DNA of 64,000 nucleotides from assembly GCA_964558645.1 (NCBI GenBank), contig CAZLEV010000013.1, positions 32,001-96,000 on the forward strand. Reading direction: 5' to 3'. Positions 3,390 to 21,581 of this stretch are shown here, piece by piece. Numbering within the stretch: position 1 is the first letter of the stretch; each line of letters opens with the position of its first letter. This DNA comes from an uncultured archaeon (GTDB lineage Archaea; Asgardarchaeota; Thorarchaeia; Thorarchaeales; Thorarchaeaceae). Position numbers and translations under genes: made by a program. A model generated the notes under the pieces. The model was not told the DNA's origin. It saw only the letters and a list, made by a program, of their open reading frames with translations, and made no database searches.

Positions 3390-4204
3390 TACTTCGTCCC
3401 TCCAAAAATCTTCTCGAGCATCGGTTCCAGATTTCCATCATGCGCTCCGAATATCTTCATTCGATTACGTATGTACTCTTCATCAAACCCCTTCTTCTTG
3501 AACAGCTTTGCAAGAGAGTCGAACCAAGCAGTTTCATGTGGGACTGGGCCTCTGCATCCTATGCAAGGCACATTATGGCTTAAGCATCGTGCCTTACACC
3601 CCGCTGTGGTCACGGGACCAAGACAAGGTTCTCCCTTTTCAATAAGAATACAGGAGTTTCCTGCCAGCCTGCACTCAGCACATACCGGATAGTCCTTGGG
3701 TTCTGGAAAAGTACCAAAAAGGAAGGCCGAAATGAAGTATAGCAGTTCGTCCTCCTCAGGAGGGCAGCCGGGGAGGAAGTAGTCCACCTTGACGTGGCTA
3801 GAGACAGGAGTGGCCTGGAGTCCCTGCATGTCTATTCTGTTCTCACCATACACTTCTGCGTAGAGTTCGTTGTAGTCTCTGTCACCCTCAGCCCAGCTCT
3901 GGACACCTCCATTGACAGCACAGGCGCCAAGAGCTACGAGAATCCGCGAGTGCTTCCGAATCTTCTTGAGTTCTTCAAGGTCTTTCTCAGTGGAAACAGA
4001 ACCCTCGACAAAGGCCACATCAACATCAGAGCCCATCTGGCTGGCGCTTGATATCATGTAGAAGCTCTTAATCTCCACTGCCTGTACTATCTCTACTATC
4101 TTCTGAACCGTAGCAAGCTTGAGCTGGCAACCATAACAGGAAGTCAGAGCATAGACAGCCATTTTTGGCCTGCATATATCCCCACATTCTTCGATAATAG
4201 CCAT
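3389..4204 (-). CDS. hydD: Sulfhydrogenase small/delta subunit
   Basis: LTSCYGCQ, EGSVST, GACAVNGG, PGCPP, CIGCRGP motifs; operon position. Confidence 0.92.
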   Translation of the reverse strand: MAIIEECGDICRPKMAVYALTSCYGCQLKLATVQKIVEIVQAVEIKSFYMISSASQMGSDVDVAFVEGSVSTEKDLEELKKIRKHSRILVALGACAVNGGVQSWAEGDRDYNELYAEVYGENRIDMQGLQATPVSSHVKVDYFLPGCPPEEDELLYFISAFLFGTFPEPKDYPVCAECRLAGNSCILIEKGEPCLGPVTTAGCKARCLSHNVPCIGCRGPVPHETAWFDSLAKLFKKKGFDEEYIRNRMKIFGAHDGNLEPMLEKIFGGTK

Positions 4205-5062
4205 CTAGATCAGCCCCGGAATGGAAGTGATAGCGTAATAGTCGAAGACTGGCCCGTCCTTACAGGCATATTTCCACGACGTTGCGGTTCCTATGTTGCA
4301 GTGACCGCATTTTCCCACCCCACACTTCATCCGTCTTTCGAGGGTAACGAAGATGTAGCGCGGGTCGTATCCCTTCTCAACAAGATAATCAAACATGCCA
4401 CGATACATTGCAGGAGGACCACACATCGCAACAGCGCAGTTCTCTGGGTCAACATTTGCCTTATCCATGTGTTCGGTTGCACGCCCGTGAAGACCGGGAT
4501 AGTCTGGATCACGAGTGACACTCTGAACTATAGCGATGTTCTCAGCAGTGGCAATATCCTTCATCGCCTCGAGTTCCTTCTCAAAGAGAAGCTCCTTGGC
4601 ATACTTCGCGGTATTGATGATGGTGATGTTTCCGAACTGCCATCTGTTGTCGATGGCATACAAAAAGACAGATCGTAGTGGAGCCATACCGAGCCCAGCT
4701 GCAACACAGAGCAAATCTCGACCGTGAAATTGTTCCATGGGAAAACCGTTTCCGTAAGGCCCTCTGATTCCTACAAGGGTACCAGGTGCTAGCTTGTGGA
4801 TTGCAGAGGTGACACGTCCTGCATTTCTGATACATAGTTCGAAGAAGCCCATCCGCCGTGCGGACGAACAGATCGATATCGGAACCTCGCCAAGACCTAG
4901 AAGAGAAACCTCCACAAACTGGCCAGGCTTGAAACGCCAGTCCTGTGCAACGTCCGAGTCCTCAAAACGAAAGAGAAAGAGAGTTTCCAGATCGGTGAGA
5001 CTGTACTTCCTCAGTAGTCTGCATTTGTGAGTGTCATACACAGACTTCTCAGTTGTTCCCAT
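4205..5062 (-). CDS. hydG: Sulfhydrogenase gamma subunit (FAD/NAD(P)-binding, 2Fe-2S)
   Basis: PGQF, GEVPISI, RGPYGNGF, AGLGMAPLR, ERRMKCGVGKCGHC...CKDGPVF. Confidence 0.92.
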   Translation of the reverse strand: MGTTEKSVYDTHKCRLLRKYSLTDLETLFLFRFEDSDVAQDWRFKPGQFVEVSLLGLGEVPISICSSARRMGFFELCIRNAGRVTSAIHKLAPGTLVGIRGPYGNGFPMEQFHGRDLLCVAAGLGMAPLRSVFLYAIDNRWQFGNITIINTAKYAKELLFEKELEAMKDIATAENIAIVQSVTRDPDYPGLHGRATEHMDKANVDPENCAVAMCGPPAMYRGMFDYLVEKGYDPRYIFVTLERRMKCGVGKCGHCNIGTATSWKYACKDGPVFDYYAITSIPGLI

Positions 5063-5063
5063 C

Positions 5064-6092
5064 TTAGATCGCCTCCTTATAGCCGCCTATCTCCATCAGG
5101 TTTCTTCTGAAATTGATGTCTGCAGGACAGAAATAGGTACAACGCCCACATCCCACGCAATAGGCCGTGGTCGTATCTTTGTTGTAAGCATTCTTGCACA
5201 TATACCGGTTCTCAAAGCGCGATTTCTTGGTGGGTCTGAAATTATGCGGGCCGGCTACGAGGCCATGGGATCGAAACTGACAAGAATCCCATATTCGCAC
5301 CCGTTCCCCAGTCATTCCATCAATGCTAGGTACATCCTTCACATCGTAGCACCGACAAGTGGGGCAGGTGAGGGTACAATTTCCGCAACCGAGACACTCC
5401 TCGCTCTCGCGATCATACATTGGATGATCATGACGAAGCTCAAGGAAGTACCTGAGGTCGTCCCAGTTCCCCTGGGTAGGAAACATTGCACTCCTCTTCT
5501 CACTGAATGCGCTTAGGTAGTCAACGTCATCTTGTGTCACCTCATCAAACATCTCCATGTTGGGATCAATGAGTTTGTGTCCCGTTACAGTTCCAACTCG
5601 TACCAGAAAACCATCAGGTAGTTCATGGAAGAACAGGTCGAAGCCTGCATCGACAAGGTCGGCACGTCGAACATTACAGAAACAGTACTCATCCGGCAGA
5701 CATGAAAGACCAATTATGATACCGTTCTCGCGCCGCTTCTTGTAGTACGGATCGGGATTCTCGTCTATGAACTCAGAGTCCACAATGCGGAGCCCTACGA
5801 TATCACATGAGTGTACGCCAAAGAGAATTGTCTTCGTGTCTTCGGGAATATTCTCATAGAGTTCTACCTTTGTGGTGTCAAAGGTGAACATCGTTTCCTC
5901 GACAGGGTAGAAGAAGCGACGAGGAGGTCGTATCGTTCGGTTGTAGTGGAACTCAACATTCTTGACGTCATTAACCTCACAGAAGTCATAGAACCTCTCC
6001 GAGATCTTCATCGGAGCGTGGAGAGTTCCTTTTGATTTCAGACGCTCAAGGAACCTGTATGTGTTTGCCTTGGATATCTTGACATATCTCAA
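5064..6092 (-). CDS. hydB: Sulfhydrogenase beta subunit (AsrA-like 4Fe-4S)
   Basis: [16 protein letters not shown] and [12 protein letters not shown]. Start placed at TTG 6092 (MRYVKI, after GAGGTG); the ORF track extends to 6119. Confidence 0.9.
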
Positions 6093-6158
6093 ATGTCCCA
6101 ACACCTCGTCAAGTATCAATGGACAACTGAGGGGACGTAGATTTGGTAATAAAGTCGA

Positions 6159-6364
6159 GGGTAGGCCAACGTCTACATGAAACTTGAGCAGAGGTGGACA
6201 TGTACTAGACTATAGCCTGATCAAGGAGGGGCCTCAGGGAGGCGTCTAGGTGCTCTGTCCCAGAACTCGCATCCGAGCGCATCACAAGATCTCATGAAGC
6301 TCAACCCAGCCAGGCCCTTGAGAGGACGACACTCTTGTGTCAAGTCTGCTCAACTAGGACTGAA
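6159..6364 (-). repeat. Diverged copy of the ~190-210 bp structured dispersed repeat family
   Basis: First 42 nt align ungapped at 28/42 to the 38217 copy. Right part gacactcttgtgtcaagtctgctcaa matches caactctctggtgtccaagtctgccca. Internal inverted repeat TTGAGCAGA/TCTGCTCAA. Confidence 0.65.
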
Positions 6365-6510
6365 TGGAGAATCTATCGTCAATCTATGGCCTCCAGACGA
6401 GCAGCGAGAGCACTTCGTAATCGCTTTCTAATCCATGACCATGACACAAGTATTATATCGCTCGCTAGGCTCTCCCCCTCGACATAGCACCAAGTTGGAG
6501 ATTAGGCCCC

Positions 6511-9500
6511 ATGGTCAGTAAACCGGCAAAGAAGTCAAATTCGGAGAGTAGACCAACAGACGTGCTCATCATAGGTGCAGGTATGGGGGGCATCAGTGCG
6601 GCTCTCGACTTGGCAGCCGGAGGCCACCATGCCCATTTGATTGAGAGAACTGTCAACATAGGCGGAAACTACGTTGCGATTTACAAGATCTTTCCTGCAC
6701 TTGAATGCTCAGCCTGTGTTATGACGCCGTTAACCTCATTCGTGGGGCGGCACCCCAATATCACAATCCATGCGCTTTCCGAGATTGAAGATGTCAGGGG
6801 TGACGCAGGCAACTTCACAGTCACAATCAGGAAGAAAGCACGATATGTGAACGAAGACACGTGCACAGGTTGTCAGACCTGTATTCAGGCCTGTCCTGTT
6901 GAAGTGCCAAATGAGTATGACTTCGGGCAATCTCTGAGAAAAGCCATCTACATGAATTTCCCTCAACAGATTCCCCTAGTGGCAACAATTGACAGAGAAG
7001 CCTGTATCGGGTGTGGAACCTGCGCGGGTGTATGTCCTCAGGACTGTATCAATTATGATGATGAGGACCAGCTGTATGAACTCAATGTGGGATCCATTAT
7101 AGTCGCAACTGGATTCCAAGAGTACAAACCCCACGACTATAGTGAATATGGCTATGGTGTCTTCCCAAATGTGGTGACGTCCCTGGAGTACGACAGGCAG
7201 ACCCATCCAACTGGACCCACCGATGCCCATATGGTAAGACCCTCCGATGGACGAGAACCTGAGAGGATACTCTTTGTCAACTGTGTAGGAAGCCGCGATG
7301 TACGGGAGAACATAGAGGGATACAGTGATCACTGTAACAAAGTCTGCTGTTCATTTGGCCTCAAGCTTGCCCAGGTCACAAGGATGCACTACCCTGAGGA
7401 TCACTGCGAGATAATCTATACCTACATGGACCTTCGTACGGCAGGGAAGGCACTTGAAGAGTTCCTCTGGGACTCGCAACACAATCAGGGGATAGATTTC
7501 ATCCGGGGAAGAGTGGCCGAGATATCAGAAGACCCAGACACAAACGATCTCTTCGTCAAGATTGAAGATACCGATACAGGCGAGATTCAGGAACTGGAAG
7601 GAATCTCGATGGTGGTTCTCAACGGTAGTTTCAGACCTAATGATGGCCATGAGGAGTTAATGAAGAAGCTTGACATTGAGTTAGATGAAACCACTGGTTG
7701 GGTGAAGGAGAAACAGGCAAACTCTGCAGCACTAGAAACGAGCCGGCCGGGCATATTCATGGCTGGATGTATCCATGGACCCAAGGATGGCACAGATACG
7801 GTTAATGAAGGAAAAGGTGCTGCAATGGCGGCGCATTCTATTCTGCCCTTGCCTGAGCCAAAGCAGAAGGAAGAGATCGCCCCGATTGAAGTGGGCGACG
7901 AACCGCGTGTTGGGGTATTCATCTGTCACTGTGGTGGTATCATTGGGGACGTCATTGATTCTCCAGCTCTGGCGGAATGGGCGAAAGACCTTCCGAATGT
8001 TGCATACAGCACTGACTACATCTTCATGTGTAGCGACCCAGGGCAGGAACTTATCACCGAGGCCATCAAAGAACATAACTTGAACCGTGTAGTAGTTGGT
8101 TCCTGTTCACCCCTCCAACATGAGGGTACCTTTAGAGGGGCACTTGAGAGGGCAGGTCTGTCAGGTTATTACTTGGTTGGTCCTGTCGGGCTCCGCGAGC
8201 AACTCACACTGGTCAACAAGAATGCACCACCTGATGAGCGACAAGAAAAGGCTCAGGATATGATTCGAAGTGGTGTTGCCAAGGCGATAAACAATGAAGA
8301 GGTACCCCTGAAGTCAGTAGAAGTTGTAAGAACCGTCATGGTCGTCGGGGGAGGAGTCTCGGGGATGACTGCATCTCTGGATATAGCCAGAAAGGGTTTC
8401 AACGTGATACTTGTAGAGAAGACAGACCGATTAGGCGGACGACTGAACGAGCTTTACAGGATATTTCCAAACATGCAGTCCGCTCAGGAGATAGTGGACG
8501 ACCTTATCGAGAGGGTAGAGGAGGAAGATCTGATCACCGTGCTTCTCAACTCCAAAGTAGTAGATCGTGATGGGGCGTATGGAAGCTACGAGATCATGAT
8601 TGAGAATGTGGAAACTGGAGAGCGACACCCATACAACATAGGCACAATGGTGATTACGGTCGGAACGGATACATATGAACCCGAAGAGGGAGAGTATGGA
8701 TGGAGCAAGCTTGACAATGTCATAACCACGCTTGACCTTGAAAAGATGATGAAGAATGGCGAGCTGAAGAAACCACCAAAGAACCCGGTCTTCATCCATT
8801 GTGTTGGTTCAAGACAAAGTCCTGGAGAGGGCAATCGGTACTGCTCCCGCGTCTGCTGCTCTGCTGTAATAGCGATGCAAAGCGAGCTTAGCGAGATGTT
8901 TCCAGACATCAAGATCTTCTCCGCATACAAAGAACACATCCGTCCCTTCGCTAATGGTATGGAAGAGATGTGGAGAGAGAATCGGCAGAAGGGGGTCACC
9001 TACCTGCGATGGGTCAGAGAGAAGCCTGTGACTGTGGAGAAAGCCGAAGATTCAGACGACGCAATAGTCACCGTGTATGATACCCTTTCCCAGGAGACCT
9101 TCGAGATAAGATCGGACATGGTCATTCTTGCTGTAGGACTTGAGGCGCCACACGATGTGAACGAGCTTGTGAAAGCACTTGGAATCAACAGGAGCCAAGA
9201 CGGCTTCCTGGCGGAGATGCACATGAAGTTCAGGCCTGTAGAGACTACGGTTCCAGGAGTGTTCCTCGGTGTAACCTACGCAAAGAATGTCACTGACTCC
9301 ATCAATCAAGCACGAGGAGCGGCCAGCGAAGCCACTGCACCCCTGAATATGGGCACCGTAGAGATCGAACTATTGGTTGCAGAAGTGGACCAAGACCTCT
9401 GTGTCGGCTGTGACCTCTGCCATTATTCTGAGATTTGCCCATACGATGCTGTATCAATGGTTGAGGTGTCCCCGGGAGTGAAGAAGAGCGTCACCGATGA

Positions 9501-9618
9501 GATGCGATGCGAGGGGTGTGGTGCATGCTGTGCGATATGTCCAACTGGTGCAAGGGATCTGCGATGGTGGCGGGAGAACAGCTTCTTGGATCAGATAGAA
9601 GAAATGCTCCGGGAGTAG
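6511..9618 (+). CDS. hdrA: Heterodisulfide reductase subunit A-like flavoprotein, internally duplicated (two FAD modules)
   Basis: Two Rossmann motifs (IIGAGMGG; VVGGGVSG), FPALECSAC, ferredoxin insert, two CVGSR...CxxVCC motifs, central CHCG/CS/SCS domain, C-terminal 2x[4Fe-4S]. Confidence 0.9.
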   Translation: MVSKPAKKSNSESRPTDVLIIGAGMGGISAALDLAAGGHHAHLIERTVNIGGNYVAIYKIFPALECSACVMTPLTSFVGRHPNITIHALSEIEDVRGDAGNFTVTIRKKARYVNEDTCTGCQTCIQACPVEVPNEYDFGQSLRKAIYMNFPQQIPLVATIDREACIGCGTCAGVCPQDCINYDDEDQLYELNVGSIIVATGFQEYKPHDYSEYGYGVFPNVVTSLEYDRQTHPTGPTDAHMVRPSDGREPERILFVNCVGSRDVRENIEGYSDHCNKVCCSFGLKLAQVTRMHYPEDHCEIIYTYMDLRTAGKALEEFLWDSQHNQGIDFIRGRVAEISEDPDTNDLFVKIEDTDTGEIQELEGISMVVLNGSFRPNDGHEELMKKLDIELDETTGWVKEKQANSAALETSRPGIFMAGCIHGPKDGTDTVNEGKGAAMAAHSILPLPEPKQKEEIAPIEVGDEPRVGVFICHCGGIIGDVIDSPALAEWAKDLPNVAYSTDYIFMCSDPGQELITEAIKEHNLNRVVVGSCSPLQHEGTFRGALERAGLSGYYLVGPVGLREQLTLVNKNAPPDERQEKAQDMIRSGVAKAINNEEVPLKSVEVVRTVMVVGGGVSGMTASLDIARKGFNVILVEKTDRLGGRLNELYRIFPNMQSAQEIVDDLIERVEEEDLITVLLNSKVVDRDGAYGSYEIMIENVETGERHPYNIGTMVITVGTDTYEPEEGEYGWSKLDNVITTLDLEKMMKNGELKKPPKNPVFIHCVGSRQSPGEGNRYCSRVCCSAVIAMQSELSEMFPDIKIFSAYKEHIRPFANGMEEMWRENRQKGVTYLRWVREKPVTVEKAEDSDDAIVTVYDTLSQETFEIRSDMVILAVGLEAPHDVNELVKALGINRSQDGFLAEMHMKFRPVETTVPGVFLGVTYAKNVTDSINQARGAASEATAPLNMGTVEIELLVAEVDQDLCVGCDLCHYSEICPYDAVSMVEVSPGVKKSVTDEMRCEGCGACCAICPTGARDLRWWRENSFLDQIEEMLRE

Positions 9619-9625
9619 GATGTAG

Positions 9626-10195
9626 ATGGTTACACTCGACGGACTGTATTCAGCATGGATGGTCCTTAATGACTTGCTGGGCGACCTGCGAGAGAAAGGA
9701 GTTGCTATCCCCGATTTGACATATGCAGACTTCCGAAATAGCAAGATGCTCCTCGAGTACCTCCGATCGCTAGAAGAAGACCTTCGTGCCTCTGACAACG
9801 CGGATGAGAAGCTGAGAGTTGATATGGAGAGCAAAATACTCCGACTTCGTGAAATGCTGCTCTCTTGGGCCGAAGCCGAGATTGGCGTTGAGTATCGCAA
9901 GAAATGGGAAGAGGATATACGAAGGGGACTGAGAGAGGAAATTGATCTTCCGGAAACGGAAACTGCCGTGCCTATCAGCGATCTCCCCAGAGAGAAGGAA
10001 GTCAGTTTTTTCAGAATGAAGCTGCCAGAGGGGATTCCTGTTGAGGTAGTCTCCGAGATTGCTGAGCACTGCAACGTACTTATTTCTCTGGATGGTGAGC
10101 GCTACCTGCAAGTGAGCGGAAAGAAAGATTGTGTCAGGAGAGCAATGACACTACTTGGAGAAACGTTCTACGGGAAGAGCCAGATCAAGAACTAG
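9626..10195 (+). CDS. DUF2096-like protein
   Basis: N-terminal WMVLNDLLGDLREKGVAIP pattern resembles archaeal DUF2096; 7 nt downstream of hdrA. Confidence 0.7.
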   Translation: MVTLDGLYSAWMVLNDLLGDLREKGVAIPDLTYADFRNSKMLLEYLRSLEEDLRASDNADEKLRVDMESKILRLREMLLSWAEAEIGVEYRKKWEEDIRRGLREEIDLPETETAVPISDLPREKEVSFFRMKLPEGIPVEVVSEIAEHCNVLISLDGERYLQVSGKKDCVRRAMTLLGETFYGKSQIKN

Positions 10196-10243
10196 CGATC
10201 CGACTCGCATTGCTTAGATATCTCACTTCTCGCATAGTAGCCG

Positions 10244-11119
10244 CTATATTCCGAGCTTCTCTGCCACAGGATCTAGAGAGACACGGTTGAGTTCAAATCC
10301 AAGAGGTTCTGGGTCTAGTCCCATAGCAGCACCGAGAATCTGAGTGACAAAGAGCGCGGGGAGCTCAAGCGACTCACCTTTATCATCTTCCATGCCAAGG
10401 ACTTGCACATCAAACTGTGTGTGACAGGCAGGGCAGTTAGTAACAACACAGTCCGCACCAGCTTCTCTTGCAGACATCATCTTCTCCTTCAGTATGCTGG
10501 TGGCCACCTCTTCACTAGAAATGAGCAGGGGAGAACCGCAACATCTGAGTTTCAGGCCCCAAGGAACACTTCTCGCTCCTGTAATCTCAAGTAATTCGTC
10601 AACTTTGCGTGGTAGTTCTGGATCATCAAACGCAGCCACTTGCGATGGCCGTATCAGGTGGCATCCTGGATGAAATGCTATCTTCAGGCCATCAAGGGGG
10701 TGTACAATGCTGTTTCTTATTTGATCCCTGAGGTCGTAAAGAACATCTACGAAGTGTCTGATCTTCACATCGCCCGAGTACTTTAAACCTAGTTTCTCAA
10801 GTGCTACATTCACTTGTTGTGTCTGTTCTTCGTGATTGTGTAGAACATGGTCAACATCCCTGAGAGAGCCGAAGCATCCATTGCATGGAGTAACGATGTC
10901 ATGGCCACGACTCCCTGCAAGCGCAATGTTGCGTCCTGAGAGAGCCAACCAGCTTCGCTCATCAATAGACTTCAAAACCACAGTGCCGCAGCAAGAGGCC
11001 CCATCAAAGTCGAGCAACTCGATATCAAGGGCTTGAGCAACGGCTCTCATAGAACTCTCATAATTATTGAAACGATTAGGAATTGCACACCCCAAGAAAA
11101 CTTCATAGCTCTGGGTCAT
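10244..11119 (-). CDS. hdrB: Heterodisulfide reductase subunit B
   Basis: Two CCG domains: FLGC..CCG..TPCNGC; HPGCH..CCG..NCPACH. Confidence 0.92.
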   Translation of the reverse strand: MTQSYEVFLGCAIPNRFNNYESSMRAVAQALDIELLDFDGASCCGTVVLKSIDERSWLALSGRNIALAGSRGHDIVTPCNGCFGSLRDVDHVLHNHEEQTQQVNVALEKLGLKYSGDVKIRHFVDVLYDLRDQIRNSIVHPLDGLKIAFHPGCHLIRPSQVAAFDDPELPRKVDELLEITGARSVPWGLKLRCCGSPLLISSEEVATSILKEKMMSAREAGADCVVTNCPACHTQFDVQVLGMEDDKGESLELPALFVTQILGAAMGLDPEPLGFELNRVSLDPVAEKLGI

Positions 11120-11640
11120 TCTTCCTCATCCTCCTGCAGTTTCATGAGACCTGTTTCTTCGAAAATCTTCTGAGTGTCCTCAATATTCAGTGCAGGAACG
11201 TCTTCGAGTCCCAAATCTTCCCGTTCCCAATCTGTTGGTTCATAGAGCTTCCCAGTGTCATAGAGACCTTTTCGAGATACAACATACCCCTGAGGAGTAA
11301 TGCCCCTCTTGAATGCCATATTCTTGAGACCAAAAATGATGTCAGTGATGTCGATTCCCTGAGGACAACGCTCTTGGCATGTATAGCAGGTAGTGCAGAG
11401 CCAGACCATATCGGTCTCGAGGACTTCCTTCAGTCCAAATACGAGCATCCTCATGAGCTCATGGACTTGAACGTTAACTTTGTCGCTTACTGGACACCCA
11501 GCACTGCATTTTGCACATTGAAAGCAGGTGGTCAAATCTTGCCCTCCCAGTAGCTTCGCCGTTTCCTGAGTGAACTCTTTGTCTAGAGTAGAGAACTCCT
11601 TGCCTTCGAAACTCTTGAACTGACCCCATGTTTCTGTCAT
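11116..11640 (-). CDS. hdrC: Heterodisulfide reductase subunit C
   Basis: CFQCAKCSAGCP, WLCTTCYTCQERCP; overlaps hdrB start (ATGA). Confidence 0.92.
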   Translation of the reverse strand: MTETWGQFKSFEGKEFSTLDKEFTQETAKLLGGQDLTTCFQCAKCSAGCPVSDKVNVQVHELMRMLVFGLKEVLETDMVWLCTTCYTCQERCPQGIDITDIIFGLKNMAFKRGITPQGYVVSRKGLYDTGKLYEPTDWEREDLGLEDVPALNIEDTQKIFEETGLMKLQEDEEE

Positions 11641-12026
11641 GCATATCACTTCTTGGGTCTGCTGACACTCAGGTTTCGTTTCTTGCTCCGCTTATATCAA
11701 TAGCGTCGGAGGCAGATGCAGTTGGTGCATAGGGGACAGAAACCGCAAGCGGGCATTCTCTCGATGCTCCATTGCGTTGCTAACATTGAACTCGTACAGT
11801 TCTGATTCGTGATGATTCTCTTGGATTTGTACACTACAGTGATTCCGTGACTTATGCAAGTCAACGCGATACAATGGCGCCATGTAATCCTGGGGAAACT
11901 GTGTATAGGAATAGCATTTCTCAAGAAGATTGCTTTGATGCGACCTGTCACAAGATTTCAAACAGTTGAATGAGTGATCTGGAAACGAATCAGGGCAACA
12001 CGACTGCCAGAGAGGTGACACTGACA

Positions 12027-12089
12027 ATGGCAAAGGATAACAAGGCAAAGAAGACCACCGACGAGAAGAAGCAGAGGCCGAAGAAGTAA
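12027..12089 (+). CDS. Putative 20-aa Lys-rich micropeptide MAKDNKAKKTTDEKKQRPKK (copy 1)
   Basis: GAGGTGA SD 8 nt upstream of ATG; paralog 503 bp downstream with the same start, stop and frame. Confidence 0.65.
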   Translation: MAKDNKAKKTTDEKKQRPKK

Positions 12090-12137
12090 CGGCGGATGTG
12101 AAGTTCACACATCACTCAGAACAATATAGAGGAGGGA

Positions 12138-12155
12138 GGCCAGCACGAACTGGCC
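12138..12155. other. GGCCAG-N6-CTGGCC inverted repeat (terminator or protein-binding site), copy 1
   Basis: 6-bp stem starting 48 nt after the micropeptide stop, followed by AATCTCT; same spacing in copy 2. Confidence 0.45.
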
Positions 12156-12529
12156 AATCTCTCTATCTAGAACCCACCGTCCGGTTCAGAGATAGAATTC
12201 GATGACTGTTATCCACCCAGTAGGCTATTCTTGGTGACAGATTGGTTGGCATGGTATTACTCTGATTGAGTCAATATCAGAGCTGATTAGTGTGATTCTG
12301 AACCTACAAGAGAGGATTCTGCTGAAGACCGAGAGTACAATAAGATGCATGCTATAGCGAATTAATCGAGCATTATTGGGTGCGCAAATTGAGGGACGAC
12401 AGCGTATACGATTAGCAGTGTTTCTGTTACGTTGCCCCAAGCAGACTGTGTCCACAATCTCTTCAGGGCATTGTGGAACTGCAGCACGCTACCAGGAGCA
12501 ACATGACTGCCACAGAGGTGACACTAATA

Positions 12530-12592
12530 ATGGCAAAGGACAAGAAGGGAAAGAAGACCACCGACGAGAAGAAGAAGAAACCAAAGAAATAA
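12530..12592 (+). CDS. Putative 20-aa Lys-rich micropeptide MAKDKKGKKTTDEKKKKPKK (copy 2)
   Basis: GAGGTGA SD upstream; 16/20 aa identical to copy 1; synonymous changes GAT/GAC, CCG/CCA, AAG/AAA. Confidence 0.65.
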   Translation: MAKDKKGKKTTDEKKKKPKK

Positions 12593-12640
12593 CGACACCT
12601 CTGGTTTTTTCCATTGATCTACTAATACTTGGAGCATAAA

Positions 12641-12658
12641 GGCCAGTGAAGGCTGGCC
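12641..12658. terminator. GGCCAG-N6-CTGGCC hairpin between the micropeptide gene and the convergent hdrA-mvhD stop
   Basis: 6-bp inverted repeat 5 nt past the hdrA stop; homolog at 12138. Confidence 0.45.
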
Positions 12659-12663
12659 AATCT

Positions 12664-15600
12664 CTATCTCTTTCTAAGCGGGCTCGGCCCGAGTTTCTCA
12701 ACGAGCTCGGAGAGTTCTTTGACCTTCTCCGCCCAAATGGGGCCTTCACTGGCACTTATCTGTGTGAATTGCAGACGCTCCGGTTCTAAGCCAGCCTTTT
12801 CAACTATTTTCTTGGCTATTGCATATCTTCTCTCAAAGGCCACATTGCCATCAACGTAGTGGCAGTCGCCGAAGTGACAACCCGATATCCAGACCATATC
12901 AGCTCCCTGTCGAAAAGCCTCCAGTATGTGGGTGACACTCACTCTCCCGGTACACATCACACGGATATCGCGGACCGTAGGTGGCTGCTGAAACCTTGAT
13001 ACACCGGCGCTATCGGCCCCGGCGTACGAACACCAGTTGCAGACTATTGTAAGGATTCGTGGTTGGTTCGCAGGCATGTCAGAGAGAGCTGCGCGGATTT
13101 GAGCCAGAATCTGGTCATCTGTGAAGTGTTTCATCGTGATGGCACCAGCGGGACAACCAGCAGCACACTTCCCACAACCCTGACAGAGTACAGGATTCGA
13201 CATGGCATAGTCATGACCCCCATCGCCCGGGATCACCTCAATAGCGTTGTACGAGCAGTTGATCTCGCAAGTACCACAGCCAACACAGACCTCGGGGTCA
13301 ACAACTGAAACAATCGCCTCAGCCTTCCTTATGCCACTAACAAGAGGTATGAGAGCACGAGCGGCCGCACCTCGACCCTGTGCGATTGCTTCATCAATCG
13401 GTTTGGGAGCAGTTGCAGTTCCGGCTACGTAGACACCATCAGTCTGGAAATCAACGGGCCTGAGCTTTGGATGTGCCTCCATGAAGAATCCCGACATGTT
13501 CGTGGGAATCTTGAAGATCTCGCCCAGATCCTTGTTTGTTTCACAAGGAACCATTGCGGTTGCCAGAATTGCATAATCAACGTCCAAGTTGAGTTTCGCG
13601 CCGAGAATCTGGTCCAACACCTCAACACGTACCGCAGTGGAATGACCCTTCTTCACTTCAGGAGGGCTATCCTTATCGAATCGGATGAAGACAACTCCCC
13701 TCTTTCGTGCATCCCGGTACTTGTCTTCAGCCGCATAGTGGACCCTTAGGTCACGATAGAGATGGAAGACTCGGGACTCAGGGCGTTTCTCCAAGAGCTC
13801 CAGTGTGTGTTCGAGAGCGACAGTACAACATATCCCTGAACACCAGGTTCGAGCGCCCTCAAGGGACTCATCCTCACGGGAACCAGCACAATGAATCACA
13901 GCATAGGTCCCATCGACAGGAAGACCATCCTCATTGATTCTACGGTTGAATTCTTCCTCAGTAATGACCTCGGGAATCTTCTTGAATCCATAGAGACCCT
14001 CTTCCTCCAATGATTGTGCGCCTGTTGCAACGATTACAACCCCCACTTTGAGGTCCGTCTTCTTCTTGCCGGTCTTGATGACCACCTCGAAGTCACCAAT
14101 AGAACCCTTAGCGTCGACAACTTCTGATTCGAGCATCAAATCGATGTTTTCGATGTTAGATATCTCATTTCGAAGCTCCTCAACAACATCGGAGGTCGAC
14201 CTGAAATCGAAGTTAACAGTTGCAAGACTGTTCAGATATCCACCGACTCTATCCTTCTTCTCAATGAGATAGACCTTGAAGCCCTTCTCGGCAATTGCCT
14301 TCGCAGCAGACATCCCCGCCACACCAGCACCGATGACAAGAGCACTCGGTTCGATATCGGTGACGGCCTCTTCCTGCGGCTCCAGTAGCCTAGACTTAGC
14401 CACAGCCATTCTGACAAGATCCATCGCCTTTGAAGTCGCCTCATCCTTTGCGCCCTGATGAATCCACGAGCAATGTTCTCGAATATTGGCCATTTCAAAG
14501 AGGTACTTGTTTAGTCCTGCTTCCTCGATGGTTGAGCGAAACAGCGGCTCATGCGTACGGGGTGTGCAAGATGCAACAACGACACGGTTGAGATTGTGTT
14601 CTTTGATGGCATCCTTGATCACCACTTGAGCGTCAGAGGAACAAGAATAGAGCAGGTTCTCGGTATAGACAACTCCCGGAAGACTATCTGCATAGTTCCT
14701 CACTTCATCAACATCAACCGTTCCCGCAATATTGATACCACAAGAGCAAACGAAGACACCAACACGAGGGTCAGCCGTCATCATGTCGAGATCGGCCTCT
14801 GTCAGCTCCTCGGTCTCACGTCGCTCTGGAAGGCCGGTGTCCTGTATCGCTAATGCCGCAGCGGCGCTACCTTGAGCCACAGAATCAGGGATATCTTTTG
14901 GTTGATTAACGGAGCCACACATGTATATCCCTGGAACCGTCGTCATCACGCTCTCGATGTGGCCATCGGGGCCATGCACAAAGCCGTATTGATCCACATC
15001 TATTCCCAGAGTCTCATACAGTTCTGCATTCTCGTTTGGTACCATAGCTGGACAGAGAACCACTAGGTCATAGTGGTCATCCAGAACTTCATGCCCCTTC
15101 GCATCGCTATGTCGTACAATCAGTCCTCGGGTCTTCGGGTCCTCGATGATCTCACTGGGAAGACCCTTCACGTAGTTGATTCCGTACTCATTCTCGCCCC
15201 GTACAAGAAACTCCTCAAATCCCTTGCCGAAGGCACGCATATCATTATAGAGGAGATCGATATGTACCTCTGGCGTGTGCTCTTTGGTGATTATTGCCTC
15301 TTTCGTAGCATAGGTACAACATATCTTTGAACAATAGGCACAATGATTCACATCGCGACTGCCCACACACTGGATAAAGGCAATCCTGTGGGGTTCAAGT
15401 CCATCCGAGGGGCGCATGACAACACCTTCGGTCGGACCACTGGCTGAAACCATTCTCTCGTATTCAAGAGCAGTCACAACGTTGGGGTATCGACCGTAAC
15501 CATACTCTTTGACCTCTGATGGATCAAGAAGATGATAGCCAGTTGCAAGGATGATTGCCCCTGCGTTGATTTCGATGGTTTCGTCCGGGATGGAGAAATC

Positions 15601-16104
15601 GATTGCTTCAGCCCTGCAGCTGTTGACACACGTCATGCACTGAATACAGTTCTCGATATCTATGGTCGCAACATTGGGTACTGCCTGTGGGAACGGAATG
15701 TACGACGCCTTGCGCATCTTCAGGCCCATGTCGTATTCATTTGGAACTTCAATGGGACAGACACGCTGGCAGTCACCACACCCAGTACACTTCTCCGGGT
15801 CAACTCGGCGGGTATGCTTCAATACGTTCACTGTGAAGTCACCCTGAACACCGGCGACTTCAATCACCTCAGAATAGGACAATATCTCGATGTTGGGATG
15901 ACGGCTTGCATCAACCATCCATGGTCCCATGATACACATGGAACAGTCCAACGTTGGAAAGGTCTTGTCTAGTTGAGCCATATGGCCTCCTATGGACGGT
16001 TCACGCTCCACCAAGAATACTTTGACACCCATATCTGCAAGGTCTAGGGATGCGCGGATGCCTGCGATTCCTGCACCGATGATTACGATTGGCTTTCCTG
16101 CCAT
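12664..16104 (-). CDS. hdrA: Duplicated HdrA fused to C-terminal MvhD ([2Fe-2S]) domain
   Basis: LDKTFPTLDCSMC, two FAD motifs, CSCG/CS/SCTPRTHEPLF, NIREHCSW; C-terminal CNWCSYAGAD...RVMCTGR...GCHFGDCHY...ISASEG (MvhD). ATG 16104 follows GGAGTGA. Confidence 0.93.
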   Translation of the reverse strand: MAGKPIVIIGAGIAGIRASLDLADMGVKVFLVEREPSIGGHMAQLDKTFPTLDCSMCIMGPWMVDASRHPNIEILSYSEVIEVAGVQGDFTVNVLKHTRRVDPEKCTGCGDCQRVCPIEVPNEYDMGLKMRKASYIPFPQAVPNVATIDIENCIQCMTCVNSCRAEAIDFSIPDETIEINAGAIILATGYHLLDPSEVKEYGYGRYPNVVTALEYERMVSASGPTEGVVMRPSDGLEPHRIAFIQCVGSRDVNHCAYCSKICCTYATKEAIITKEHTPEVHIDLLYNDMRAFGKGFEEFLVRGENEYGINYVKGLPSEIIEDPKTRGLIVRHSDAKGHEVLDDHYDLVVLCPAMVPNENAELYETLGIDVDQYGFVHGPDGHIESVMTTVPGIYMCGSVNQPKDIPDSVAQGSAAAALAIQDTGLPERRETEELTEADLDMMTADPRVGVFVCSCGINIAGTVDVDEVRNYADSLPGVVYTENLLYSCSSDAQVVIKDAIKEHNLNRVVVASCTPRTHEPLFRSTIEEAGLNKYLFEMANIREHCSWIHQGAKDEATSKAMDLVRMAVAKSRLLEPQEEAVTDIEPSALVIGAGVAGMSAAKAIAEKGFKVYLIEKKDRVGGYLNSLATVNFDFRSTSDVVEELRNEISNIENIDLMLESEVVDAKGSIGDFEVVIKTGKKKTDLKVGVVIVATGAQSLEEEGLYGFKKIPEVITEEEFNRRINEDGLPVDGTYAVIHCAGSREDESLEGARTWCSGICCTVALEHTLELLEKRPESRVFHLYRDLRVHYAAEDKYRDARKRGVVFIRFDKDSPPEVKKGHSTAVRVEVLDQILGAKLNLDVDYAILATAMVPCETNKDLGEIFKIPTNMSGFFMEAHPKLRPVDFQTDGVYVAGTATAPKPIDEAIAQGRGAAARALIPLVSGIRKAEAIVSVVDPEVCVGCGTCEINCSYNAIEVIPGDGGHDYAMSNPVLCQGCGKCAAGCPAGAITMKHFTDDQILAQIRAALSDMPANQPRILTIVCNWCSYAGADSAGVSRFQQPPTVRDIRVMCTGRVSVTHILEAFRQGADMVWISGCHFGDCHYVDGNVAFERRYAIAKKIVEKAGLEPERLQFTQISASEGPIWAEKVKELSELVEKLGPSPLRKR

Positions 16105-16516
16105 TACCGTGTTCACTCCGTTGGCGTCATCGCGTTGGTCTGAAACCGATGATAAAAGCTTAGTTGTGTGACGTTAACGAGCCGGCAACGTACTACGAGC
16201 CGATTGGCGCGAAATGCATCCTTGATGTCTCACCAGTGTCCATTCACCGATGAGCATTAATATTACGGGGGCAATACATGGATGGGACGCAGATGAAGGC
16301 TACAAGATTGTACACCCGTGCATATATTTCTAGAAATCACTCATATTCTAAGAACGATGTTGATACATACGAAGAGCTGGCCAACATGGAGATCGTGGTC
16401 CCTCCACCCAAGCAACCCACGTGAGAGTACAGTTCTTCTATCTTCTATCTGGTTGCATCGAGCGTCTGAGCACTGCCAAGTGTTCGTTTGAACTGCACTT
16501 GGTTGTACATTAGATT

Positions 16517-17233
16517 TCAGATCTTTTCGAGGCGTGCCCTTACTACACTACCACAATAGTTGCACTTCGCCTCAAGTGGTCCGGTCCAGTCGATGTCCTC
16601 CTGCGAAAGCGATGCACCACACGAGGGGCACTTGGCCGGGAGACGAACTGTTCGAATGTCAGCAGTCTCGGGCTTCTGACGATAGCTCTTGGGAATTACA
16701 AACGCAGGAGCCTCAACTTGCATGCCTTGATCAACAGAACGACGACCCCTGGATTTCACCCCGTATACAATAGCGACCAACAAGCCAACAAGAAGCACGG
16801 GAGCGATGATCAACCAGACACCATAAGTAGCATACAGAGCACTGAAATCATCGTAGACACCAATATCGAAATAGCCAGCCTTACCGGCTTCCTCATCGAC
16901 CAAGATGTTGACAACCGTATCTTCTTCAAGTGTGAACTGTAGAGAAGCAGTTGTCTTGCTGGGACCTTCAGTTTCTGCAAGCACCACCGCAGTGTTTGCA
17001 TCTGATACGGTGATGTCGAAAGTCATTCCCCAGAAAGCGACACTCTTGACAACCACAGTCCAACTCCCTGCAGTGAGATTTGCAAAATAGTATCCTCTTT
17101 CGTTCCCCCATAGATGTTCAAGGCTTCGGGTTTCGTTCGGATCAAGTCTGGCTCCAAATTGAGCCCTTGCACGCGGAACAGAAATCAATACCAAGAGAAA
17201 GATAAGACTCACCAAGATATGGCAACGGCGCAT
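16517..17233 (-). CDS. Single-pass membrane protein with cytoplasmic zinc ribbon
   Basis: Signal peptide, TM helix, C-terminal CPSCG...CNYCG. Confidence 0.75.
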   Translation of the reverse strand: MRRCHILVSLIFLLVLISVPRARAQFGARLDPNETRSLEHLWGNERGYYFANLTAGSWTVVVKSVAFWGMTFDITVSDANTAVVLAETEGPSKTTASLQFTLEEDTVVNILVDEEAGKAGYFDIGVYDDFSALYATYGVWLIIAPVLLVGLLVAIVYGVKSRGRRSVDQGMQVEAPAFVIPKSYRQKPETADIRTVRLPAKCPSCGASLSQEDIDWTGPLEAKCNYCGSVVRARLEKI

Positions 17234-17346
17234 TCAATCTAACCTCGCTACAGGCTGAGTTACGACGCGCCTTAAACTTCTTTCCAAAAGAACGCCTGAG
17301 TGAAGCCAAGATCTATCGTGGGATGGCTAGCGAGGAAATAGGTCTT

Positions 17347-18264
17347 CTAGGCCTTGAGCCCAAGGACTTCCCAGTTGGGTTGACTCTTTCTCTGCATGTA
17401 TTGAAGGTGCGTATCCAGACCGAACTCATCAGGATCATGGCCGAATGCAAGTGCAAGCAACTCGGTGACATGAAGTACGTCGAAGACATACTCGGCATCG
17501 AAGTGTTTCTGTATCTCCACCTGTCCAAGATCAAGCTGTAACTCACAGAACGGGCAGGGTGTCACAATCATATCGGCCCCTCCTGCCTCGATAATGCTGT
17601 CAAACTTCTGCTTGGTGAAGTCCAAAGCCACAGCAATATCTGCTGTCCGAACTGCCCCTCCGGCACCGCAACACATCAGTTCGTCCTTGTAGGGAACATA
17701 TTCTGCACCGGTGGTTTCGCAGAGCTCCCGGAAAATGTGGGGACGTTCAGAGTCGTCCTTCTGTTTCAGCAGCTTTGGCCGCATCCAATGGCACCCCGGG
17801 TGCAAAGCCATTCTCACGCCCGTCATAGGTCGTTCGACATGTTTGCGGATCTTTTCAAGCCCTGCGGTGTCATAGAGCGCATCCACATAGTGAGTGACTT
17901 CGATAGAACCCTTGAACTCACGACCGATTTCTCTCAGGCCTGCATTCACAGCCTCACGCAGTTTTTCATCGTGCTTCAATTCGTGATTGGCATCCCAGAG
18001 GCTTGCAAAACAACCGTTACATCCAGTTGTAATCGGGTCACCTGTTTCCTCTGCAATAGTGAGATTTCGTGCAGCAATGGTTGCCCAAGTTATCCGATCA
18101 AAAGATCCGAATACGCCGGGTGCCGGGCAACAAGTCGCACCTTCCATGTCCAGAAGGTCCATATCAAGGTCTTCGAAGACCAGTCTGGTTGCCTTCTCAA
18201 TGCTGGGGTATCTGTGCGGAATGATGCATCCTAGGAAATGATAGAAAGCAGGTCTCTTGGGCAA
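17347..18264 (-). CDS. hdrB: Heterodisulfide reductase subunit B
   Basis: FLGCIIP, CCPAPG, GCNGC, HPGCH, CCGAGG, PCPFC. Confidence 0.93.
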   Translation of the reverse strand: MPKRPAFYHFLGCIIPHRYPSIEKATRLVFEDLDMDLLDMEGATCCPAPGVFGSFDRITWATIAARNLTIAEETGDPITTGCNGCFASLWDANHELKHDEKLREAVNAGLREIGREFKGSIEVTHYVDALYDTAGLEKIRKHVERPMTGVRMALHPGCHWMRPKLLKQKDDSERPHIFRELCETTGAEYVPYKDELMCCGAGGAVRTADIAVALDFTKQKFDSIIEAGGADMIVTPCPFCELQLDLGQVEIQKHFDAEYVFDVLHVTELLALAFGHDPDEFGLDTHLQYMQRKSQPNWEVLGLKA

Positions 18265-18270
18265 ATCAAA

Positions 18271-18846
18271 TCACTCCTCATCCTTCTCTTTTTCTTCAAC
18301 GAGTTTGTCGAAATGGGTCTTCTTCGCAATCTTGACAACATCCGCGATGGCCTCGGGAAATCTACTGGCATTGGGGGGTATGGGTTCGAGTCCCACCTTC
18401 TCTCGTAGTTTCTGCCAAGACTCCTTGTCAAGAGGGACTGCATGTCCAGCCTCAAGTACCTTCTGAGCAACTTTCTGATGAGGCTCCAGCATATAGCCCT
18501 CCTGAACAGCAATGTTGCGGATTGCCTTGATGACATCTGTAGGCTTGACATCCTGAGGGCACCGGTCTGTACAGGTGTAGCAGGTGGTGCAATACCATAG
18601 CTCCGGAGCAGAGATACAGTCCTCCTTCAGGCCAAGTAAGGCCTTCCGGATGATGCCTCTCACAAGGTAATTGGTTCTAGCACCAGCAGGACAGCTGCCG
18701 CTGCAGGTCCCACATTGATAGCAACTCTGGATGTTGGGCCCGCCGGTCCTTTTGATCATCTCGACGAACTCAGTGTCGGGCTCATCAAGAACAATGGGGG
18801 CCTTTTCCTCAGCACTGGTCAAGTTTGTCCACCGACTTCTCGTCAT
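18271..18846 (-). CDS. hdrC: Heterodisulfide reductase subunit C
   Basis: CYQCGTCSGSCP, WYCTTCYTCTDRCP, GHAVP. Confidence 0.93.
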   Translation of the reverse strand: MTRSRWTNLTSAEEKAPIVLDEPDTEFVEMIKRTGGPNIQSCYQCGTCSGSCPAGARTNYLVRGIIRKALLGLKEDCISAPELWYCTTCYTCTDRCPQDVKPTDVIKAIRNIAVQEGYMLEPHQKVAQKVLEAGHAVPLDKESWQKLREKVGLEPIPPNASRFPEAIADVVKIAKKTHFDKLVEEKEKDEE

Positions 18847-18949
18847 AGCGTTGAATGCGGCCTTAAATCCATTTGTCTAAGGCAGTATCGAGTGAGGCCC
18901 TTCATGACCGAGAAGATGCCAGAGGATTCCAAAGATTCATCCGAGTAAG

Positions 18950-20047
18950 ATGGATATCTTCGTCTTGATGAACTGCCCGAATCACTCCGAAGAAAGGCAT
19001 GTTGCCTCCAGGACCGTGGGCTATTGCGGAGAATGCCTCATCGAAAATCCCGCACGGCTGCAAATAGCCTTGCTATCGCATGAAGCTCAAAGAAAGAAGA
19101 TGGGGCTTGTGTCAGTAGTCCCGTCAGACGGGAATACTGTATGTACGGAATGCGGAAACCACTGCAGACTCAGGGATGGCGAGACCGGGTTCTGTGGACT
19201 ACGTACTGCGAGAGAGGAATCCATCGTCGAGATATATCAGGACTCAGCAATCGTATCTTGGTATCGTGATCCGCTCCCAACGAACTGTGTCGCAGACTGG
19301 GTCTGTCCTGTCAGAGAACAGCATTGTGCGCCCAACGGAAAGAGAAGACATAATCTCGCAGTGTTCTATGGCTCCTGCAACTCCGACTGCCTGTTCTGTC
19401 AGAACTCGAGCTACAGAGACATGATGCGAGATGGGCATCCGCTGATGACTCCTGAGCAGTTGGCCTCCATGGTGAACGAAACTACAGCATGTATCTGCTA
19501 TTTCGGAGGGGACCCGTCCTGCAATGCTGAACACTCGATCAAGGCATCACGTATAGCCAATGAAGACAGAAGAGTTGCCATCTGCTATGAAACAAACGGA
19601 AATATCTCTCGAAAATGGCTTCACCCCATTGCAGATACCGTGGAGAACTATGGGGGCACTATCAAGTTTGACTTGAAGGCTGTTACTGAGGAGGTATACA
19701 CCGCTCTGACGGGCATCTCAAATACCACTACTCTTCGAAACTTCAGGATCTTGGCTGAAAGAGGACTGAATCGCGATGGTGAGAGTCTAGTTGCCAGCAT
19801 CCTATTGATACCTGGCTACGTGGGAACTAGAGAACTGAAGAAGATCTGTGAATTCATAGTTAGTTGTGACGATGCCATCCCCACTGCGCTCTTAGGATTC
19901 CAGCCCCACCACTGGATGAGAGACCTGCCAAGAACCAGTCAAGAGCATGCCGAGCAAGCCAAGAGTATTGCAGAAGAGGTGGGACTGAAGAATGTGCGAA
20001 TAGGCAATCGCGGACTGCTCTCAGCTGCAGATTATCTTACAGATTGA
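18950..20047 (+). CDS. Radical SAM protein (PFL-activating-enzyme/AmmeMemoRadiSam-like)
   Basis: CNSDCLFCQN (CxxxCxxC), FGGDP, ETNG; N-terminal CTECGNHC...GFCG; start may be 18968. Confidence 0.85.
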   Translation: MDIFVLMNCPNHSEERHVASRTVGYCGECLIENPARLQIALLSHEAQRKKMGLVSVVPSDGNTVCTECGNHCRLRDGETGFCGLRTAREESIVEIYQDSAIVSWYRDPLPTNCVADWVCPVREQHCAPNGKRRHNLAVFYGSCNSDCLFCQNSSYRDMMRDGHPLMTPEQLASMVNETTACICYFGGDPSCNAEHSIKASRIANEDRRVAICYETNGNISRKWLHPIADTVENYGGTIKFDLKAVTEEVYTALTGISNTTTLRNFRILAERGLNRDGESLVASILLIPGYVGTRELKKICEFIVSCDDAIPTALLGFQPHHWMRDLPRTSQEHAEQAKSIAEEVGLKNVRIGNRGLLSAADYLTD

Positions 20048-20136
20048 AAACAGAAGCACGCCGCCAGTGACTGAATCCTTATATCCTTCGAATCCTGCCA
20101 GCTGTCGTTATACAGCCGTAGCTTTGAGGACTCCCC

Positions 20137-20688
20137 ATGAATGACTCCATCTCAAGAGAAACGATAGAGAACGATTCCATTGACCCAGACTTCGTCGAAA
20201 AGATTGTTCAAGCAGGAGCGGACCGCATCAGAACGTGTATTCAGTGTGGAACATGCTCAAGTGTATGTCCGAGTGGTCGACGGACTGCATTCAGAACCAG
20301 AGAGCTCATGAGAAAGGCACTGCTGGGGTTGAAAGAAGAGGTGTTGAGCTCTCCAGACTTGTGGTTATGCGCGACGTGTCTCACCTGTCTTGAACGATGC
20401 CCAAGGCAGATCAAGGTGACCGATGCGATTGTCATCATGAGGAACATGGCTGTTGAGGAGGGTTTCATGCTTCCTCAACATAGAAAGGTGTCAAAGAAGC
20501 TGCTCCAGACAGGCCATGCTGTGCCTTTAGATGAGGCAAACCAAGAGATGCGAAAGGAATTGGAAATCCCAGAAATACCACCCACGGTTCATGCTCATGA
20601 GGATGCGCTGGAAGATGTCAAGGAGATCATGAAGAGAACTGGCTTTGATAAGCTCATTCAAGAGAAAGAGGGAGGAGAGAAAGAATGA
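20137..20688 (+). CDS. hdrC: Heterodisulfide reductase subunit C
   Basis: CIQCGTCSSVCPSG, WLCATCLTCLERCPR. Confidence 0.93.
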   Translation: MNDSISRETIENDSIDPDFVEKIVQAGADRIRTCIQCGTCSSVCPSGRRTAFRTRELMRKALLGLKEEVLSSPDLWLCATCLTCLERCPRQIKVTDAIVIMRNMAVEEGFMLPQHRKVSKKLLQTGHAVPLDEANQEMRKELEIPEIPPTVHAHEDALEDVKEIMKRTGFDKLIQEKEGGEKE

Positions 20689-21581
20689 CTGAAACAAGGA
20701 AGTATTCGTTCTTCTTGGGATGCGTGATGCCGAACCGATTCCCGAATGTAGAAAAGAGTATCAGAGAGGTATTGCCGAGAATTGGTATCGAGCTAGAGGA
20801 ACTTGAGGGTGCCAGCTGCTGTCCTGCTCCAGGAGTCATACGTTCATTTGATGAGCCAACTTGGTTGGCACTGGCTTCCCGAAACCTTGCACTTGCTGAG
20901 AAAGCAGGCAACGATCTGATAACCGGATGTAATGGTTGCTACGGTACTTTCAAGGAGACCTTGGCCGAACTCAGAGAAGATCCCGAACGGCTGAAAGAAG
21001 TGAAGGGGTATTTCCATGGACTAGGAATCCCATTCAAGGCCGAAGTAGATGCGAAGCACATCATCGAGGTCATCCATGAGATTGGACTTGAAGAAATCAA
21101 GGAACATATTGTACGCCCATTGGAGGGACTCAAAGTAGCAGTTCACTATGGATGTCATCTTCTGAAACCTAGTAATAACAGACCATGGGAGAAGACACAG
21201 CGACACACGTTTCTGGATGAACTTGTCGATGTCACGGGGGCAAAGAGTATTCCGTATAAAGACAAGTTCATGTGTTGTGGTGCAGGTGGAGGCGTACGAG
21301 GAAGCAATGTCCCAGTCAGTGTAGACATTGCCAAGGAGAAGCTTGACAATATGATAGAGGCAGGGGTCGATGCAATAGTCAATGTCTGCTCTTTCTGTCA
21401 TCTGCAGTTTGAGGTTTCACAGGCACAACTGAACAAGGAGCTTGGAGAACAGAGATACAAGATACCAGTGTTTTATTACACGCAGCTGTTGGGTCTGGCA
21501 ATGGGTATGGATCCACAGTCACTGGGACTTCACAAGCATGTTGTCAGCACGGAGAGCCTTCTTGATCGGCTTCTGACCTAG
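20685..21581 (+). CDS. hdrB: Heterodisulfide reductase subunit B
   Basis: FLGCVMP, CCPAPG, GCNGC, HYGCH, CCGAGGG, CSFCH. Confidence 0.93.
   Translation: MTETRKYSFFLGCVMPNRFPNVEKSIREVLPRIGIELEELEGASCCPAPGVIRSFDEPTWLALASRNLALAEKAGNDLITGCNGCYGTFKETLAELREDPERLKEVKGYFHGLGIPFKAEVDAKHIIEVIHEIGLEEIKEHIVRPLEGLKVAVHYGCHLLKPSNNRPWEKTQRHTFLDELVDVTGAKSIPYKDKFMCCGAGGGVRGSNVPVSVDIAKEKLDNMIEAGVDAIVNVCSFCHLQFEVSQAQLNKELGEQRYKIPVFYYTQLLGLAMGMDPQSLGLHKHVVSTESLLDRLLT

Follow-up and report, generated by a model that had tools for sequence, protein, structure and literature searches.

A lysine-rich micro-protein family of Thorarchaeota with its own putative expression cassette, occurring as a tandem pair in an hdr gene cluster

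Among the described micro-proteins of the ribosome, eL41 has an Arg-Trp-rich helical core and is bound at bridge eB14 between rRNA helices 27, 44 and 45, and Arg and aromatic residues are usual in eL41, bS22, bL37 and bTHX. Adenovirus mu, an Arg/His-rich polycation of ~19 aa, condenses DNA and is cut from a precursor. The ribosomal protein bL37 (24 aa) was unannotated before cryo-EM (PMC5876184), and eL41 is listed as missing from Thorarchaeota (PMC9932298). The histone H1 C-terminal domain and tails are rich in Lys, Pro and Ala and carry S/T-P-K-K motifs (PMC2504289, PMC2790876); oligolysines are able to condense DNA at charges of +3 to +10, the charge of histone tails being +8 to +14 (PMC2790876). 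In archaea, the 23-aa sP26 of Methanosarcina mazei binds glutamine synthetase (bioRxiv 10.1101/2020.05.06.080432). The peptides analysed here resemble mu in being polycations of ~20 aa and differ from it in being Lys-rich, chromosomally encoded and directly translated; judged by sequence comparison, they represent an undescribed Asgard (Thorarchaeota) micro-protein family with its own expression cassette.

The window, i.e., the whole analysed stretch of 64,000 nt from an uncultured archaeon of the Thorarchaeaceae, contains two micro-ORFs on the + strand of a 1,018-nt gap, with the hdrA-mvhD fusion gene and hdrC on either side, both on the - strand. The features of the locus are as follows:

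11116-11649, - strand: hdrC, divergent from unit 1 and followed by hdrB (10244-11119)
11691-11698, - strand: TATA-like box of hdrC (putative function), divergent from unit 1
11901-11910, + strand: TATA-like box of unit 1 (putative function), ~-125 from the ATG and in register with the TTTATAT box of the family
11930-11998, + strand: predicted P1 stem in the leader of unit 1, in which 11930-11939 (the predicted 5' end) pairs with 11989-11998, which contains the conserved GCAAC
12005-12032, + strand: predicted hairpin P2 of unit 1, TGCCA pairing with the start-codon region and enclosing the Shine-Dalgarno sequence (SD, 12012-12018)
12027-12089, + strand: micro-ORF 1, 20 aa, net charge +6, C-terminus RPKK
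12131-12164, + strand: terminator-like hairpin of unit 1, z -4.5, core 48 nt 3' of the stop
12402-12410, + strand: TATA-like box of unit 2 (putative function)
12431-12502, + strand: predicted leader stem P1 of unit 2
12508-12535, + strand: predicted hairpin P2 of unit 2, enclosing the SD (12515-12521)
12530-12592, + strand: micro-ORF 2, 20 aa, net charge +8, C-terminus KPKK
12641-12658, no strand assigned: hairpin of unit 2 (putative function), 5 nt past the hdrA stop, which lies on the opposite strand
12664-16116, - strand: hdrA-mvhD fusion gene, convergent with unit 2

Re-reading of the sequence confirmed both ORFs at the positions given in the original prediction, each running from ATG to TAA over 20 codons, as well as the claimed GAGGTGA SD, which is present 8 nt 5' of each ATG. 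Seven codons differ between the copies and resolve into the 3 synonymous (codons 4, 18 and 20) and 4 amino-acid changes (N5K, A7G, Q16K and R17K) that had been claimed. Over positions 2061-21581 of the window, a NiFe hydrogenase cluster is accompanied by two long HdrA genes, three hdrCB-like pairs and one DUF2096 gene.

The micro-ORF repeat comprises 97 nt with 88% identity at an offset of 503 nt (blastn, E 6e-28), and no third copy was detected by blastn in the 3.6-Mb assembly. The flanking DNA had been described as diverged beyond recognition, but it is still homologous, as the hairpin, the TATA-like box and 295 nt upstream all match: the terminator-like hairpin recurs at the repeat offset of 503 (12137-12168 and 12640-12671), the TATA-like box recurs at -125/-126 from the ATG, and the 295 nt upstream of the copies align with a score of 94 against 54 +/- 10 for shuffles (maximum 87, n=200). 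The duplication took in the whole ~503-nt unit, in tandem, in this genus; in the reconstructed order, the cassette would first have been inserted at the hdrA-hdrC junction and the unit duplicated afterwards. Both copies occur in the other two genomes of the genus, and the peptide of micro-ORF 2 is invariant in all three. In G002, a third copy (L012, G002:C144:43-220) is found where a contig begins, again next to this hdrA end, and is probably an assembly or strain duplicate. The micro-genes had also been considered too short for gene callers; copy 2, however, was not missed altogether, as NCBI/Logan lists it as a singleton of 39 aa, unnamed, that begins at an upstream GTG. This start is wrong, since the extension is not conserved in relatives, and upstream extensions of 39 aa and 29 aa were both rejected, given a frameshift in copy 1 of G002, loss of the ATG in G001 and variable SD spacing.

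A search for conserved-frame homologs in relatives, the check named in the original prediction, recovered them and revealed purifying selection on the sense ORF. Among eight independent pairs of the wider family, third codon positions take 34 of 46 changes (P 2e-8 versus one third), and 32 synonymous versus 10 replacement codons were counted; in the hdr-linked copies of two genera, variable columns number 2, 3 and 16 at codon positions 1, 2 and 3, respectively. All indels within the ORF are in-frame, and the second genus carries a single 17-aa version at the same junction with an in-frame 9-nt deletion, while the distance between SD and start varies over 4-10 nt; the reading frame is therefore not maintained 5' of the ATG, and this codon is assigned as the start. 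Judged by these substitutions, the Lys frame is the one under selection, and the micro-genes are very probably real.

Each ORF forms the core of a stand-alone unit of ~250 nt, consisting of a TATA-like box, a ~100-nt leader, GAGGTGA, the ORF and a hairpin. Across the family, the cassette aligns end to end, with an AT-rich element, a BRE/TATA-like box (-123 to -137), the ~100-nt leader, GAGGTGA and the ORF, and nearly all members exhibit a GC-rich hairpin 26-56 nt 3' of the stop. The columns of the TATA-like box are conserved in an alignment of 21 cassettes, and the box of this genus deviates from the family consensus; A/T tracts upstream of the cassettes are phased at ~10.5 nt in a set that includes kin and is not independent. 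In the terminator-like hairpin of unit 1, a G-U change preserves pairing in relatives, and the hairpin of unit 2 probably serves as a terminator for both convergent transcripts. A regulon sharing the promoter motif was considered and rejected, the motif being confined to the two unit sites in this genome.

The family was widened via a 19-aa look-alike from a metagenome pattern scan (L145), the DNA of which matched more Thorarchaeota genera. Pattern and profile searches placed the cassette in 22 of 86 Thorarchaeota-family genomes and 8 of 16 genera, with carriers scoring at least 43 bits and non-carriers at most 31 bits; the protein HMM was insensitive and missed true members. Among the genomes searched, several that are 97-99% complete contain no detectable cassette, and because of these the cassette is probably accessory, being either dispensable or diverged past detection in genomes lacking a match. 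The peptides measure 17-26 aa and, over 27 sequences, are composed of 49% Lys, 11% Pro, 10% Gln, 5% Ala and less than 1% Arg, with aromatic and Cys residues absent. The termini are conserved, with an MAK, MGK or MSK start and a KPK motif; most members end in KPKK, and a few run past KPKK or lose the Pro. No match was obtained in Pfam, NCBIfam, PHROGs, PDB, Rfam or ESM Atlas by methods that are weak on 20-mers, so that these blanks are not proof of novelty, and no description of the family was found in the literature searched, which lay outside subscription journals.

Lysine-rich micro-ORFs were also observed beyond these genera. A strict N-terminal pattern run over GTDB retrieved Thorarchaeota plus two starts of long proteins only. 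Three genomes of a Heimdallarchaeota-labelled genus contain SD-led 21-22-aa ORFs ending in KPKK, with a TATA box and a hairpin, and the cassette model gives no score to these three ORFs; on non-Asgard loci, its match is limited to the SD and ORF. The notion of a cross-domain family defined by PKK-stop was discarded, as a control pattern ending in P-x-K-K likewise returned many Lys micro-ORFs in viral contigs, and because the control retrieved such ORFs equally readily, the non-Asgard SD-led Lys micro-ORFs are rated as look-alikes and not as proven homologs. They include micro-ORFs of 14-23 aa rich in Lys, Pro and Gly, with a perfect SD and a GC hairpin, adjoining the same ~100-aa ArsR-like HTH gene in Chloroflexota-like contigs (L118, L123, L128, L137, L139); a stand-alone 21-aa Lys/Ala micro-ORF with an AT-rich promoter 5' in Methanoperedenaceae contigs (L111, L121, L122); and SD-led Lys-rich micro-ORFs of 13-20 aa, several with an N-terminal Cys, in phage-like contigs (viral contigs L235, L240, L242, L243, L249, L251, L255-L257; further L129, L131, L135, L147). 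Other small conserved features were encountered in Thorarchaeota: an SD-led stretch of ~75 nt in several genera (L272, L274, L278, L281-L285); an SD-led ORF of 30 aa, the last 12 residues of which form an identical Trp/Phe motif (G000:C6:14049, L365:249-341; L318 in G010), and which has no Pfam match and lies 3' of a tRNA-like gene that is tRNA-Thr in G010 and received no call in the excerpt of G000; and, in G085 and G032 (L322, L323), a stand-alone Cys-containing ORF of ~50 aa, YHS-like by eye, with a long leader and a hairpin, nearly identical between two genera.

The reading that we favour, with a probability of roughly one half, is that the product serves as a disordered accessory polycation and associates with nucleic acid in the manner of a free histone tail. 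The unit would be transcribed alone as a ~250-nt RNA and translated into a disordered peptide of ~2.2 kDa with a computed pI of ~10.2. Methionine aminopeptidase removes the initiator Met when residue 2 is small, and because residue 2 is nearly always small in the family, the Met is probably removed, leaving a net charge of +6 to +9. The peptide would then bind polyanions through charge and at no fixed site, with DNA, RNA and possibly the surface of the ribosome as targets, and, in the way of an encoded polyamine or free histone tail, adjust the compaction of the nucleoid or of RNA. Over the 27 sequences, the net charge is constant at +5 to +9 while the mid-sequence and length drift, which suggests selection on charge more than on fold and suits electrostatic contacts with DNA or RNA better than a lock-and-key site. 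Like the H1 C-terminal domain and histone tails, the peptides are disordered, Lys-dominated and Pro-containing, with a charge of +6 to +9, near that of one tail, and an x-P-K-K end; unlike H1 and the histones, they possess no winged-helix or histone-fold domain and no repeat array, and are encoded alone at 17-26 aa, and Pro is preceded by Lys or Arg in place of the phosphorylatable Ser/Thr of the S/T-P-K-K motif. The likeness to histone tails and protamines would be one of mode of action, and the family belongs to neither. As counterpoints, the conservation of the termini exceeds what charge alone needs, and a specific site could exist; a 20-mer that is not bound may also undergo rapid degradation. 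In favour of the reading, this genome encodes histones, with one clearly matching gene (C1:21564) and a second that matches weakly (G000:C2:274382; L363:82-276). The second encodes a 65-aa histone-fold-like protein with weak Pfam histone hits and a Lys-rich N-terminal tail, the first residues of which resemble the start of the micro-peptide.

An accessory ribosomal micro-protein filling an rRNA pocket is an unlikely alternative that deserves to be weighed. In common with eL41, bS22, bL37 and bTHX, the peptides are strongly basic, near the 17-30 aa of those proteins and of a kind often overlooked by annotation, so size and charge fit, as do the conserved termini; moreover, eL41 was not found in this genome, and since it is also reported absent from Thorarchaeota, its site could be vacant. 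The eL41-like peptide proposed in the original prediction nevertheless fits poorly: no Pfam hit to eL41 (PF05162) was obtained for 9 members scanned at E<=10, and the family has less than 1% Arg and no Trp. For bTHX (PF17070), bS22 and bL37, no profile or PDB match was found, the sole match being 9 residues of eL37 at E 0.93, and a motif scan was empty. Unlike these proteins, the family is Pro-rich, almost without Arg, without aromatic residues and spread over 17-26 aa in length; it is also patchy (22/86 genomes), duplicated, with paralogues in one genome, and devoid of a link to a ribosomal operon.

Also quite unlikely is a regulatory role in which the small peptide docks on an acidic partner, be it a protein or another peptide; sP26 provides the precedent of an archaeal peptide binding an enzyme, and a 30-aa acidic Asp/Trp micro-peptide encoded elsewhere in this genome is one candidate partner. 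The family resembles sP26 in lacking aromatic residues and in being the product of an archaeal stand-alone intergenic gene, and differs from it in that the sP26 mRNA is leaderless and ~70 nt long, whereas the leader of the cassette measures ~100 nt and includes an SD. Nearly every Thorarchaeota locus checked contains the acidic micro-ORF, frequently next to a second Lys-rich micro-ORF, and this second Lys neighbour is missing in this genus and two others, where the KPKK cassette is present. Against a pairing of this kind, the two Lys families coexist in G016 and G026, neither was seen in at least 7 genomes, and no conserved gene neighbour indicates a target. The notion of one Lys micro-gene per Thorarchaeota genome, with the two families mutually replacing each other, was dropped for the same genomes with both and with neither. 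As for the genes themselves, the acidic micro-ORF encodes 25-35 aa rich in Asp, Glu and Trp, has a strong SD and is divergent from a ~280-aa orphan gene (G000:C8:148260-148352; L347:1560-1652; L327-L362), and the second Lys-rich family, of 19-31 aa with a C-terminal Lys run, lies 3' of it in many loci and is absent here. A still bolder proposal, for which the odds are low, is a histone or linker-histone tail acting in trans: a separately regulated oligolysine would tune Asgard histone chromatin, possibly buffered by the near-universal acidic micro-peptide, and the family would be the Asgard branch of overlooked oligolysine micro-genes of archaea, bacteria and phages.

That the RNA is the functional part, as a structured small RNA whose ORF is translated mainly for the protection or regulation of that RNA or as a sensor of charged tRNA-Lys, is improbable, although the leader has features that speak for it. 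The ~35-nt leader of the original prediction is indeed conserved and holds the SD, but it covers just the 3'-terminal part of a leader of ~100 nt for which folding is predicted: the conserved GCAAC represents the 3' arm of a ~70-nt stem closing on the predicted 5' end, and TGCCA is predicted to pair around the SD. Of 24 leaders, 16 have a leader stem and 18 an SD hairpin that beat shuffles, in windows that were picked after the folds had been seen; the same two elements are formed in other genera from different arm sequences, and the leader is well conserved inside genera. Whole-leader z-scores are weak (-1.4 and -1.7), and covariation within the genus is not significant, with 97% of cells paired and 185 of 500 shuffles equally high. 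The leader is likely to be a folded structure, and the hairpin across the SD may make translation conditional. Against the RNA as the functional part, synonymous sites are free to vary and residues are kept, and no Rfam covariance match near a gathering score was found. An attenuator leader peptide or uORF was likewise rejected, as the downstream genes vary and are often convergent; a conserved downstream gene on the same strand, the target that attenuation would need, is lacking.

A small subunit or regulator of the adjacent Hdr complexes, the partner role suggested in the original prediction, is very improbable. The hdrA-hdrC position is kept in five of the 22 carriers, from two genera, but the cassette lies on the opposite strand with its own putative promoter, and in 16 of the 22 carriers, hdrA and hdrC abut and the cassette is found next to unrelated genes (flavodoxin, methyltransferase, tRNA cluster and others); in the remaining carrier, the orthologous hdrC locus was not recovered. 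The hdrA-hdrC spacing is 0-17 nt in 64 of 71 orthologous loci, which, together with the carriers that keep the cassette beside unrelated genes, makes an Hdr partner unlikely. In one hdr-linked genome, a second paralogue occurs next to a corA-like gene. The same junction is occupied by an unrelated LOR/scramblase-like gene in two genomes of another genus (L081:1730-2335 in G067; G025), and because either this gene or the cassette is present there in different genera, the junction tolerates inserts; the TATA-like box of hdrC is retained in every lineage in which hdrA and hdrC are separated. The Hdr link is probably incidental, the cassette having landed in the junction. In a short Hdr tree, the two hdr-linked genera are grouped weakly (80/93), together with two genera without the insert, and a single insertion event at the junction is likely.

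Finally, there is next to no chance that the locus encodes no Lys peptide: a non-coding purine-rich repeat, the refuting reading of the original prediction, is excluded by the codon-position pattern and the conserved frame, and a Phe-rich hydrophobic ORF on the opposite strand, which shares wobble positions and would give the same synonymous pattern, has no conserved start, SD or stop as a type I toxin-like candidate and is closed by a stop in G010, whereas the SD, start, stop and frame of the sense ORF are kept in all members.

The accessory polycation remains the preferred reading, and a place for the peptide within Hdr is improbable, which removes a false lead. The result adds a verified unannotated gene family to the Asgard archaea and a defined peptide of ~2.2 kDa that is open to synthesis; proteomes and annotations would both miss it, because trypsin would destroy the peptide and size cut-offs hide it. 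If the ribosomal role is true, the peptide may occupy the site of the eL41 reported missing in Thorarchaeota. SD-led lysine micro-ORFs occur in many other lineages, according to metagenome and viral scans, and the result would therefore inform a wider class. A chromatin role, if true, would bear on the pre-eukaryotic origin of lysine-rich tails and linker-histone functions.
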